DNA from: a virus
IMG/VR virus record: IMGVR_UViG_3300007512_001547
Coordinates: 32,001 to 96,000 of that record
Length of the DNA: 64,000 bases
Reading direction: 5' to 3' (one strand)
Shown here: piece after piece, positions 36,139-44,804 of the stretch
Layout: every line of letters starts with the position of its first letter
How positions within the stretch are numbered: position 1 is the stretch's first letter
Program-made: the position numbers and the translations under genes
The notes under the pieces: generated by a model
What the model was told of the DNA's origin: nothing
What the model saw: the letters and a program-made list of their open reading frames with translations, nothing else
Database searches by the model: none

Positions 36139-36781
36139 ATATCTTCACTTTGGACCAGTAATAGGTGGCACAAAATGTAATACTGATCTCTGTAAAGAAC
36201 TATTAAATCGTGGTCATAAAACAACTAGATCACACGTTAAAAATCTTGCAGGTCATATGAAAAAGGAAAATATCTTCGAAGACCTAGATAAGAAATGGTT
36301 TGTTGATAATTTTCAAAACTATTTTATTCCTTATTTTAAAAAATTACAAGACAAATCAGATCCCAATTACTATTATGGTATGGATCCTTTTAAAGAAATA
36401 TGGCTCGCAACATTATGGATTAATTTTATGAAAAAGGGAGAATATAATCCTCCACATAATCATACTGGAGACTTTTCATTTGTTTTATACTTGCAAGTTC
36501 CAGAAGAATTAAAAAAAGAAGATCAAGCATTTGAAGGACGAGGTAGTGGACCTGGAACAATAAGTTTTATATATGGAGAAGAACAAAAAGGTATTAGCAC
36601 TGGTCATGGAATACTCCCTACTATAAATGATTTATGGATATTTCATTCATCATTAAAACATACTGTACCACCATTTAGATCAGATGTAGAACGTATTTCT
36701 GTTTCAGGAAATTGGTATATTACAGATCATATAAAAGATAAAAGCAAAGAACTAGAATTTGGAAAAATTTTAATTAAATAA
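36116..36781 (+). CDS. 2OG-Fe(II) oxygenase-like protein
   Basis: WINFMKKGEYNPPHNH (HxH), SFVLY, IFHSSLKHTV, RISVSGN. Confidence 0.8.
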   Translation: MVNQINHRYLHFGPVIGGTKCNTDLCKELLNRGHKTTRSHVKNLAGHMKKENIFEDLDKKWFVDNFQNYFIPYFKKLQDKSDPNYYYGMDPFKEIWLATLWINFMKKGEYNPPHNHTGDFSFVLYLQVPEELKKEDQAFEGRGSGPGTISFIYGEEQKGISTGHGILPTINDLWIFHSSLKHTVPPFRSDVERISVSGNWYITDHIKDKSKELEFGKILIK

Positions 36782-36793
36782 CAAAAAGGAAAT

Positions 36794-36973
36794 ATGGCAA
36801 AATTCAGCGGGATCAATAGAGCATACACAACAGGTGAAATACCAAAAACACCACAAGAAAAACAAAGAGAGTTAGATAAAAAAATGCAAGAGTTTTTAGC
36901 CAAAGGCGGCAAAGTAGAAAAATTAAAAGATCATAAGCCTACCAAAGAACAATTAAGATCATGGAAGATTTAG
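36794..36973 (+). CDS. 59-aa SutA-like RNAP-binding-domain protein (below the ORF-track cutoff)
   Basis: Hand translation MAKFSGINRAYTTGEIPKTPQEKQRELDKKMQEFLAKGGKVEKLKDHKPTKEQLRSWKI; TAAATA 36775-36780 plus AAGGA RBS. Confidence 0.65.
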   Translation: MAKFSGINRAYTTGEIPKTPQEKQRELDKKMQEFLAKGGKVEKLKDHKPTKEQLRSWKI

Positions 36974-37167
36974 AACGTTTAAAAAAATTAGCAGGCATTG
37001 AGAATTTACCTGTAGAAGATTCAATGGGAGAAAACCTTTCTCTTCATGGAACAAAAAAAGCAGAATATCAAAGAAAACATAATGTCCGTCCTGGAACAGA
37101 AGAATGGTTTAAACTGTGGTTTGCTAGACCCAAACTAACAGGTGAGAACCCAATGCCAAAAAAATAA
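36961..37167 (+). CDS. Small putative head protein
   Basis: LERLKKLAGI; PGTEEWFKLWF. Confidence 0.6.
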   Translation: MEDLERLKKLAGIENLPVEDSMGENLSLHGTKKAEYQRKHNVRPGTEEWFKLWFARPKLTGENPMPKK

Positions 37168-42256: not shown

Positions 42257-42676
42257 ATGAAAGCACAAGAATTTATTCAAGAAGGCGCATCAATGTTACC
42301 TTACTTTAAAAAAGATGAAAAAACTTGGTCTTTTCCAGATGCTTGGGCAAAAGACGAAGCATTAGACACACCTTATATGAGTAATATGAGTATGCGTCAG
42401 TTTTTAGACACACTAGGATATGACAGTGATTTTGAAAGTGCAAGTCCAGTAGATGCAAAAGAATTTATAGGACGTACTACACAATGGTTACAAAAAAATA
42501 TTGATAAACCATCACAAGAAATTCCAACAACAGTTGATAGATCCGGAGGCGGTGCTACAATGATAGGTGGCGGAAAACCAGAAGGTTGGGATAATAGACA
42601 AGTAAAACATCATAACGAATTAGCAAGAAAAATTTTAGCAAAATATCCAGAAGTAACACATTTTGGATTTAATTAA
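42257..42676 (+). CDS. Putative head-packaged protein
   Basis: TAAATA 42246-42251; N-terminus MKAQEFIQE. Confidence 0.6.
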   Translation: MKAQEFIQEGASMLPYFKKDEKTWSFPDAWAKDEALDTPYMSNMSMRQFLDTLGYDSDFESASPVDAKEFIGRTTQWLQKNIDKPSQEIPTTVDRSGGGATMIGGGKPEGWDNRQVKHHNELARKILAKYPEVTHFGFN

Positions 42677-42677
42677 T

Positions 42678-44804
42678 ATGAAATATAACGAATTTAATAA
42701 CCCTAGAGAAAAACCACAAGTTAGACCAGTAACAACCATGACGTCAAAAGAGCTTGGTGATAGAATAGAAAAAGCAAGAGCAAAAAATTATAAAAAACCT
42801 GAACCATTGGACTTTACAAAATTATGGAGTAAAGAAAAACCAGCAGTAGAAGCAGGTGTAACACCAGGCGGAACAAAAGTTGATTATGCCAATATAATGT
42901 TTCGTGGTAAAGAAATAGATCATAATAGTATAGAATATGAAATGCAGGATTTTAGTGATATGATTTATGAGCTACATGGAGCAAAATATATAGATGGTAC
43001 ACCTTTAACTGATGAAGAATTACAAGAACTTGAAAGGACAGACGAATTTACTGACTGGGTTAGTATGGATTATGCATCATCTGGACCAGATGCGCCAGAC
43101 GATTATCCATTTGAAGAAGACGGTATGACATCTGCTGATGTTGATCGAATAAGAAACCAAAAGTTTACTACCAACCAAATTAAACAGGCTTATCGTGTTT
43201 TAAATCATCCAAGAGTTAAAGGTGGCAATTATACAGCCGCTTATAATATTATTAATAGAATTGCTCCTGGTCTAGCAGATCACCCAGATGTTGCAAACGC
43301 ATTAAGAAGAGCAAATGAAATGAAAGAAGATATAACAACAATGGCATCAAGAGTAATCAGAAATTATGCTAGAGAGATTGGTCCGGATTCCATGGACTAT
43401 GGTATGTTTATGACATCAGCAGAACTATTAGACAAAGGTATGCTGAAATCATTAGCACAACTTATAGATAAGTCAGATACCGCTCCAAGAGAATACGTAA
43501 TGAAAAAAATAGCGGATCATGATCCAGAGACATTTAAAAAAATGTATGGTGACCAAGAGGGTTATCTTTCTGTAATGAAACCAGCACAAGATTTAAAAGA
43601 TGCTGACTACAATAACTCTTTACAAAATAAATTAGATAAAGCTATGCAAGAATACGACTCACCAGAAAAGAAAGCAGAACGTGATGCATTAATGAAAAAG
43701 TATCTTGCTAAAGGTGGAAAAGTTGAAAAAGTACCAACAGGAAAAACTGCATACAAAGGAAAAGAATTAAAACCACAATATAAAAAAGATAATGGAACAC
43801 CAATTACAAGTCCAATGAGCGACGAATCAGTGCAAGAAGACATTTCAGAAAAAGGCAGAATTGCTTTAGAAAAAGCAGGATTTGATCCAAATGCAATTCA
43901 TGAGTATATGGCAGTGTTCAATGACCACGGTGATACTTCAGAGTTAGAAGACATGAACGAAGTTAAAATTGGAGTAGCAGATGCTATGGCCATGGTGTTA
44001 GCATCTCACGATGCTGGAGATATGTATCCAAAAAGTCCATATAGTAGTGATCCAAAATATAGAAGTAAAGAATCAGTTGAAGAATCATCTATCAAACCTT
44101 ATGTGTCAATGTATAAAGGTGATGATGGAAAAACTGTATATGACGTACTAGACAAAGACGGTAAATCAGCATACAAAACAAAAGATGAAAGATTAGCACA
44201 GCATTACTTCAAAAAAAATTATCAAAAATTAAAAGAAGACGGCGCTCCATTTGGTTCAGGCATGGAACTTTTAAGAATGGCAATTATGAGAAAGTTTATT
44301 ACTGTTCAAGAATGGGATTTATTAAAACACAAATGGAAAGAAGCGGCCGCTGAAGTTGAACAACAATATAGTGATTGGCCAGAAGGCGAAGGTTTTGGAT
44401 CATCAGATCACAACTTTGCAATTAGAGATTTAATGACTGCTGTTGGATATGAATTTGATGACCAAGATACAAGTGGTAGATTTGTTGTTACAAAACAACC
44501 AGAAGAAATAGAAAAAGCAGGTATTAAAAATGTTAGAATGCAAGGTGAACCTGTTGCAACAGAAGGTGGTATGCCTGCTTCAATTATTAAACATAAACAA
44601 AAACTTGCACATATGTCTGATGAAGAATTAGCAGATAGATTTAAAGATTTTGATGAACAAAGATTAAGACAAATGGCTTGGAGACACGGATATGGTAAAA
44701 TGAGTTCTCATTACTTGGACAGAGTTAGAAACCATATGACTAGCAAAAGAACTGGAACATACGAATCAAAACTTGCTAATATGTTAAATCAACGTCTTAA
44801 ATAA
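42678..44804 (+). CDS. Multi-module putative head polyprotein containing a SutA-like segment
   Basis: Start MKYNEF; modules separated by AVE, FEE, MKE, VQE, VEE, LKE, ATE; segment KKAERDALMKKYLAKGGKVEKV. Confidence 0.6.
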   Translation: MKYNEFNNPREKPQVRPVTTMTSKELGDRIEKARAKNYKKPEPLDFTKLWSKEKPAVEAGVTPGGTKVDYANIMFRGKEIDHNSIEYEMQDFSDMIYELHGAKYIDGTPLTDEELQELERTDEFTDWVSMDYASSGPDAPDDYPFEEDGMTSADVDRIRNQKFTTNQIKQAYRVLNHPRVKGGNYTAAYNIINRIAPGLADHPDVANALRRANEMKEDITTMASRVIRNYAREIGPDSMDYGMFMTSAELLDKGMLKSLAQLIDKSDTAPREYVMKKIADHDPETFKKMYGDQEGYLSVMKPAQDLKDADYNNSLQNKLDKAMQEYDSPEKKAERDALMKKYLAKGGKVEKVPTGKTAYKGKELKPQYKKDNGTPITSPMSDESVQEDISEKGRIALEKAGFDPNAIHEYMAVFNDHGDTSELEDMNEVKIGVADAMAMVLASHDAGDMYPKSPYSSDPKYRSKESVEESSIKPYVSMYKGDDGKTVYDVLDKDGKSAYKTKDERLAQHYFKKNYQKLKEDGAPFGSGMELLRMAIMRKFITVQEWDLLKHKWKEAAAEVEQQYSDWPEGEGFGSSDHNFAIRDLMTAVGYEFDDQDTSGRFVVTKQPEEIEKAGIKNVRMQGEPVATEGGMPASIIKHKQKLAHMSDEELADRFKDFDEQRLRQMAWRHGYGKMSSHYLDRVRNHMTSKRTGTYESKLANMLNQRLK

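Follow-up and report, generated by a model that had tools for sequence, protein, structure and literature searches.

The SutA protein of Pseudomonas aeruginosa (PDB 7F0R, 7XL3 and 7XL4; NCBIfam NF041490; Pfam PF20661) has so far been described as a cellular factor of Pseudomonadales and Alteromonadales. It is an acidic protein of 105 aa, equipped with a D/E-rich N-terminal domain, a wedge loop, an RNA polymerase (RNAP)-binding domain and a C-tail. The RNAP-binding domain (RBD), a helix-GG-strand unit, comprises residues 57–90 (He et al. 2022, PMC9300723). By mutation, residues L67, M71, F74, L75, V81, I84, K60 and R64 as well as the pair G78-G79 were found to be needed for binding to the protrusion of the beta subunit (PMC9300723). 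The N-terminal domain, in which 23 of 55 residues are acidic, enters the main cleft, which is positively charged, and steers the wedge loop between protrusion and lobe (PMC9300723). The PFL_1563 proteins (NF058628) are bacterial RBD-only paralogues of about 60 aa, built of a short basic N-segment, the helix-GG-strand unit and a short tail; a literature search found no paper mentioning PFL_1563. Among phage proteins, T7 Gp2 targets the beta' jaw and sigma 1.1 of the polymerase, and T4 AsiA targets sigma region 4. Additionally, a 155-aa 'Regulatory protein' of putative function in Pseudomonas Mu-like phages (Beetrevirus, vB_PaeS-D14F) carries a SutA-type motif, QELDELVQQFLAGGGQIEKV, with a weak match to PF20661 (E=3.4e-4). 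In vB_PaeS-D14F (BK061479.1; locus L083, 2483–2950), its gene lies directly upstream of gemA and mor.

The locus described here encodes a viral protein of 59 aa with a predicted helix-GG-strand RNAP-binding domain like that of SutA. Unlike SutA, it is basic (pI 9.9) and lacks the D/E-rich domain, a defined wedge loop and the SutA C-tail. The protein has the same size and layout as the PFL_1563 proteins, but their tail GVSGQ...IS.GKK is missing from it, and it has ends of its own, KFxGINRxY and KPTKEQLxSWKI. Its likeness to T7 Gp2 (cited in PMC9300723) and T4 AsiA is that of a small phage protein predicted to sit on the host RNAP and to alter initiation; there is no sequence relation to either of them, and the predicted site is the beta protrusion. 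The 155-aa Beetrevirus protein shares the motif but is longer, differs in its C-terminal part and comes from temperate phages whose host has SutA.

The window, a stretch of 64,000 nucleotides, represents bases 32001–96000 of a 137,583-bp IMG/VR record. CheckV estimates this record to be about 29% complete, which implies a genome of several hundred kb. The GC content is 32.4%, and no tRNA genes were found in the piece. The DNA polymerase is of T4 type, with the nearest relatives in the 470–490 kb phages Phosso of Sinorhizobium (50.6% identity) and Atu_ph07 of Agrobacterium (45.5%); no close relative of the phage was found among 50,697 GenBank phage records. The hexamer TAAATA occurs at 110 sites on both strands of the 137.6-kb record. 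It lies 3–25 nt upstream of the start, mostly at 5–8 nt, in 39 of 174 crude gene calls, as compared with about 1.6 expected from its overall frequency. These boxes are very probably T4-type late promoters, and their spacing suggests very short leaders or none. Searches of the 137-kb record, at its completeness of about 29%, for an RNAP beta domain and for Sigma70_r2 found nothing. As neither gene was found in the piece, the phage probably uses the host polymerase; the TAAATA enrichment fits such a phage, as does the missing beta gene.

The original prediction concerned an ORF with a SutA-like motif that had been missed by a 60-aa cut-off, and a frame of 59 aa with this motif was found on the forward strand (Table 1). 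Its description as unannotated holds for that cut-off only, as the gene is called in public collections. Residues 22–44 of the protein read EKQRELDKKMQEFLAKGGKVEKL. Overall, 15 K+R stand against 8 D+E, and the 19 residues N-terminal of the helix have a net charge of +2. The gene was said to have its own TAAATA box and ribosome-binding site, and both are present, the former sharing bases with the stop codon that ends the 2OG-Fe(II) oxygenase gene upstream. However, the claim of an own late promoter is weaker than the rest, because the box, with the sequence ATTAAATA, stands 13 nt away from the ATG, unlike the ATAAATA that lies 5–8 nt upstream of many other genes of the record. A scan for sigma-70 promoters and terminators gave nothing better than shuffled sequence. 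Both ends of the protein are conserved, the N-terminal one as M-x-K-F-x-G-I-N-R-x-Y and the C-terminal one as K-P-T-K-E-Q-L-x-S-W-K-I, and presumably matter. The overlapping 68-aa ORF (MEDLERLKKLAGIENL...) comes after the gene in most syntenic relatives and is missing from the gene's other contexts; no family was found for it.

Table 1. Features of the window around the 59-aa gene and the second SutA-RBD-like block (positions within the window)
Feature	Position	Strand	Remarks
Fused cytidylyltransferase-like/NT5C 5'-nucleotidase protein, 390 aa	34966–36138		Upstream neighbour of the 59-aa gene
2OG-Fe(II) oxygenase, 224 aa	36107–36781		Upstream neighbour of the 59-aa gene
TAAATA box, candidate T4-type late-promoter element	36775–36780	+	13 nt before the ATG
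Shine-Dalgarno-like AAAGGAA	36784–36790	+	From sequence; AAAGGA 4–9 nt before the ATG of the 59-aa gene
59-aa gene, basic protein with SutA-RBD-like core	36794–36973	+	ATG start
Amphipathic helix, residues 20–36	36851–36901	+	Equivalent to SutA helix 57–76; AF2 monomer and co-fold contacts
Residues 38–47, G38 G39 turn and KVEKLKDH segment	36905–36934	+	In the co-fold model, an extra beta strand alongside beta 121–127
68-aa ORF	36961–37167	+	Overlaps the 59-aa gene by 13 nt
713-aa ORF, modular protein family	42663–44804	+	709 aa from the ATG at 42678 (MKYNEF...); holds the second SutA-RBD-like block
Second SutA-RBD-like motif (SPEKKAERDALMKKYLAKGGKVEKV)	43662–43751	+	PF20661 match; invariant core of the large family

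Judged by comparison with its homologues, the 59-aa ORF is a real and conserved gene. A word-indexed search of 5.8 billion proteins yielded 157 homologous clusters, almost all of exactly 59 aa and from marine metagenomes including Tara. Most of these clusters already bear a precomputed PF20661 match, and one Atlas cluster carries the automatic name 'SutA RNAP-binding domain-containing protein'. The word-index searches skipped proteins of 105–167 aa, so SutA itself could not appear there. Moreover, 129 IMG/VR loci encode the protein in several unrelated gene contexts. Across 19 loci, the nucleotide differences from the window copy at codon positions 1, 2 and 3 were 229:126:476, a third-position bias which indicates that the frame is translated and under purifying selection. 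The position behind the NMNAT/5'-nucleotidase gene is retained in about 25 related contigs. The gene is also found alone in at least six unrelated neighbourhoods; in one of these, its neighbours are a primase, another 2OG oxygenase and a fragment of a DNA polymerase. Furthermore, another subgroup has longer variants of 85–95 aa immediately upstream of its DNA polymerase, and one related viral contig has a tandem duplicate of the gene (L033, 1376–1770). An origin of the ORF by chance, or as the end of the oxygenase gene before it, was considered and rejected, as the ORF is found by itself in unrelated contexts. Against GenBank phages, megablast of the surrounding 6 kb returned no match, and tblastn of the protein against the same phages returned weak matches only (E >= 2), mostly to Pseudomonas Mu-like phages. 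The same weak tblastn match is given by 49 Pseudomonas phage records.

An HMM search was proposed as a check on the predicted SutA-like RNAP-binding domain, and its outcome supports the prediction. The top match of the 59-aa protein is the Pfam SutA-RBD (PF20661), at E=4.1e-6 and 26.5 bits, 2.8 bits under the gathering cut-off of 29.3 bits. Among 17 diverse relatives, 16 match PF20661 (best E 8.1e-9), and 11 of 53 relatives are at about the cut-off. The family as a whole qualifies for PF20661, and the window copy falls just short. Within NCBIfam, the PFL_1563 small protein model (NF058628) was matched at E=2.2e-4 and 20.8 bits against a 60-bit cut-off, over model positions 4–29 only. The SutA equivalog model (NF041490) was matched at E=4.9e-4 and 20.9 bits against a 145-bit cut-off, over model positions 65–88 only.

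A set of bacterial proteins was collected by scanning 401 Pseudomonadota genomes with PF20661, and 22 of the sampled genomes were above the cut-off, with 1–4 copies each. The bacterial ORFs comprise a SutA-like protein of 104 aa and several basic RBD-only proteins of about 60 aa, which are PFL_1563 small proteins by NCBIfam (83–88 bits). When the phage family was compared with these bacterial SutA/PFL_1563 proteins by hhalign, the probability was 94.5% (E=7.4e-8, 30 columns). A profile search of the PDB was ambiguous: a designed repeat protein and a chain named CaBP4 ranked above SutA, which was third (E=0.038). For PDB chain 7f0r_G ('Transcriptional factor SutA'), the alignment shows KQKERDALAKAMEEFLSRGGKVQEIEP; the SutA segment KERDALAKAMEEFLSRGGKVQEI quoted in the original prediction is printed there and is correct. 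Single-sequence phmmer against 1.8 billion representatives did not reach SutA. The homologous stretch is short (about 30 residues) and rich in lysine and glutamate. The proposed resemblance to the SutA-RBD exceeds what chance would give; it stands for the domain, by the hhalign probability, and fails for SutA proper, by the equivalog score. In terms of sequence, the protein resembles SutA at the domain level only and is not a SutA orthologue, because it has neither the acidic N-tail nor the SutA C-tail and its overall pI is 9.9.

The contact residues known from SutA can be placed directly on the phage protein. With a gapless offset of 40, SutA L67, M71, F74, L75, V81 and I84 correspond to phage L27, M31, F34, L35, V41 and L44, and SutA G78 G79 to phage G38 G39; six of six hydrophobic contacts and both glycines are kept. 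The polar contacts are not kept, with P20 and Q24 in place of SutA K60 and R64. F34, G38 and G39 do not vary among 53 relatives, and L27, V41 and the positions next to them are almost invariant; the same holds for M31 in a set of 17 more diverse relatives. Thus, the positions most conserved in the phage family are those that matter in SutA.

Structure prediction was carried out for the monomer and for a complex with the beta subunit. The AF2 monomer, based on the 53-sequence alignment, has a helix at residues 20–36 (pLDDT about 77–84), a short helix at 51–56 and a mean pLDDT of 69.6. It contains no strand; a strand-like pairing of phage residues 41–47 with beta 121–127 appears only in the co-fold, among the lowest-error pairs. 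Co-folding with RNAP beta was another check proposed for the original prediction, and its result agrees with docking at the SutA site. With residues 1–520 of P. aeruginosa RpoB (RPOB_PSEAE), a stand-in for the host's own protein, ipSAE was 0.69, 0.71 and 0.69 in three runs and 0.00 in each of three controls. The 0.69 mark is reached by 58 of 80 solved complexes and by 2 of 110 mismatched pairs, and is to be read as a rough guide, our own alignment having been used. The partner pLDDT was 70, and at least 78% of the contacts were common to the runs.

The co-fold interface covers beta 58–64, 71, 73, 95–132 and 493–511, and phage residues 20, 23, 24, 27, 30, 31, 33, 34, 40–49, 53 and 56–59. Beta S59 and E73, which are named for SutA (PMC9300723), fall within it, as does the strand addition. 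Q24 contacts beta 61, 62 and 73 despite the replacement of R64. The C-terminal residues touch beta 493–511, and the conserved N-terminal 19 residues were not placed. The predicted docking would use the SutA site on the beta protrusion, which speaks of likeness and not of binding. As the SutA-RNAP complex is already solved, the co-fold pass may reflect memory of that structure. The contacted beta residues 58–62 (RSVFP) and the strand at about 120–132 are well conserved in four proteobacterial rpoB genes, with or without PF20661; the site therefore does not narrow the host.

With the HMM search, the profile-profile comparison, the conserved interface residues and the co-fold with its controls, a role at the beta protrusion is the best reading of the gene. 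We put slightly better than even confidence in a docking of the 59-aa protein on the host RNAP, at the beta protrusion and via its SutA-RBD-like module, with an action by occupancy or through its own tails and not by an acidic-tail wedge. The protein would be a phage-encoded, stand-alone version of the SutA RNAP-binding domain. Its amphipathic helix 20–36 would lie in the hydrophobic groove of the beta protrusion (beta1), and the G38-G39 turn with the KVEKL segment would, as in SutA, extend the sheet of the protrusion by one strand. Having no acidic N-terminal tail, the protein could not thread a D/E-rich tail into the main cleft and wedge the lobe open. What we infer of its effect on transcription, the timing of this effect and the host goes further than the gene, the homology and the contacts, which were read from the data, and the docking, which was modelled. 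The action would presumably be by site occupancy, and several forms of it can be envisaged. Host factors that use the protrusion site may be blocked or displaced, the seating of sigma region 3 and of the upstream DNA beside the protrusion may be changed, or the conserved KFxGINRxY and KPTKEQLxSWKI segments may be presented to the polymerase.

As a sub-case of the docking reading, the protein might be a competitive antagonist of host SutA-family proteins that switches off a stress or slow-growth programme. This requires a host with SutA or PFL_1563 proteins, and we regard it as unlikely. An RBD without the activating tail is the expected look of a competitor, and the predicted beta-protrusion site is the same. 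Bacteria with PF20661 carry 1–4 paralogues, including the RBD-only PFL_1563 proteins of about 60 aa. Moreover, the nearest cellular relative is a 72-aa protein from a MAG of marine Spongiibacteraceae in which a SutA-like gene is present too, and the motif occurs in the early 'regulatory protein' of the Pseudomonas Mu-like phages. However, PF20661 was present in only 22 of the 401 sampled Pseudomonadota genomes, and the phage DNA polymerase is nearest to those of phages of Alphaproteobacteria.

A different explanation dispenses with RNAP contact altogether: the motif would be a short convergent or over-read one, in a small, basic protein whose partner is something else, such as a nucleic acid, a virion component or another phage protein. 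The gene does lie within a block of probable late genes, some of which have capsid-targeting-like leaders, but the 59-aa protein itself has no such leader, and in other phage lineages the gene stands beside replication genes. Also in its favour, the alignment covers a short region with a biased composition, the window copy is below the Pfam cut-off and the PDB profile search is ambiguous. Against these points stand the profile-profile probability of 94.5%, the conserved positions, which are exactly the experimentally defined SutA contact residues, and the co-fold controls at 0.00. This explanation is therefore considered improbable. Finally, the original proposal of a functional SutA mimic, which would activate promoters such as those of rRNA or stress genes and keep a starved host productive, is very doubtful: although the RBD-like core is the same as SutA's and most of the N-tail is said to be missing from some SutA homologues of bacteria (bioRxiv 10.1101/423384), deletion of the SutA N-terminal domain abolishes activation (PMC9300723), the N-segment of the phage protein, whose pI is 9.9, has 19 residues with a net charge of +2 against 23 D/E in 55 residues of SutA, the NF041490 score is 20.9 bits against a 145-bit cut-off, and the data show no link to starvation.

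Docking at the beta protrusion, the preferred reading, would give the gene a meaning beyond this phage. Viral homologues are unmentioned in the two SutA mechanistic papers and in a 2026 preprint, and a literature search found no paper describing viral SutA-RBD proteins. It is already known that automatic pipelines attach PF20661 to many of these proteins. What is new is a viral form of this known domain that has no tail, and of which the phage also encodes a fused version. The half of SutA that binds the polymerase, without the activating half, is thus met as an abundant small gene in several uncultured marine phage lineages. If binding is confirmed, the beta protrusion would be another RNAP surface targeted by phages, and the protein would offer a natural 'RBD-only' tool to probe the roles of the SutA-family and PFL_1563 proteins. 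In that case, the docking module could also help to trace further phage proteins directed to the polymerase.

The fused form is encoded in the same window, in the 713-aa ORF (Table 1). Its SutA-RBD-like block matches PF20661 at E=6.5e-6 in the genome scan and at 6.2e-4 on the protein. The motif reads EKKAERDALMKKYLAKGGKVEKV, of which ERDAL is common to SutA. Homologues of the large protein are mosaic, with differing N- and C-terminal modules. In a 13-sequence alignment, the invariant columns cluster in the SutA-RBD-like block and the next 35 or so residues (PTGKTAYKGKELKP...TSPMSDESV). The protein has no further Pfam match and no PHROG match, the ESM Atlas gave nothing for it, and tblastn of its motif block against GenBank phages found no match. 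Its AF2 model, with a mean pLDDT of 41.7, is too poor for use. The 59-aa gene and the gene of the large protein co-occur in at least two different gene arrangements, and the 713-aa protein begins with a T4 capsid-targeting-like leader (MKYNEF...).

As the module is also embedded in the 713-aa protein, a portable tag that attaches proteins to RNA polymerase suggests itself. Tentatively, and with low confidence, we propose that the SutA-RBD-like block may be a portable RNAP 'address tag' employed by this group of giant marine phages in two forms, one free as the 59-aa protein and the other at the core of a head-packaged, co-injected protein of about 710 aa. If this is the case, the large protein would be packed in the head and injected with the DNA, would attach to the beta protrusion as soon as infection starts and would bring its variable cargo domains to the polymerase. 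The proposal would resemble T4 Alt in its logic, not in sequence.

Two short contigs from metagenome-assembled genomes also encode the 59-aa protein, at 73–75% identity. These contigs, NHCU01000066.1 and NHDJ01000027.1, were binned with a betaproteobacterium and a verrucomicrobium; they make up 2/3 of the genome-collection matches and come from MAGs of discordant phyla, and are most likely mis-binned phage DNA. As another observation on the surroundings of the gene, a 2OG oxygenase near it is found in an unrelated phage context as well (L037).
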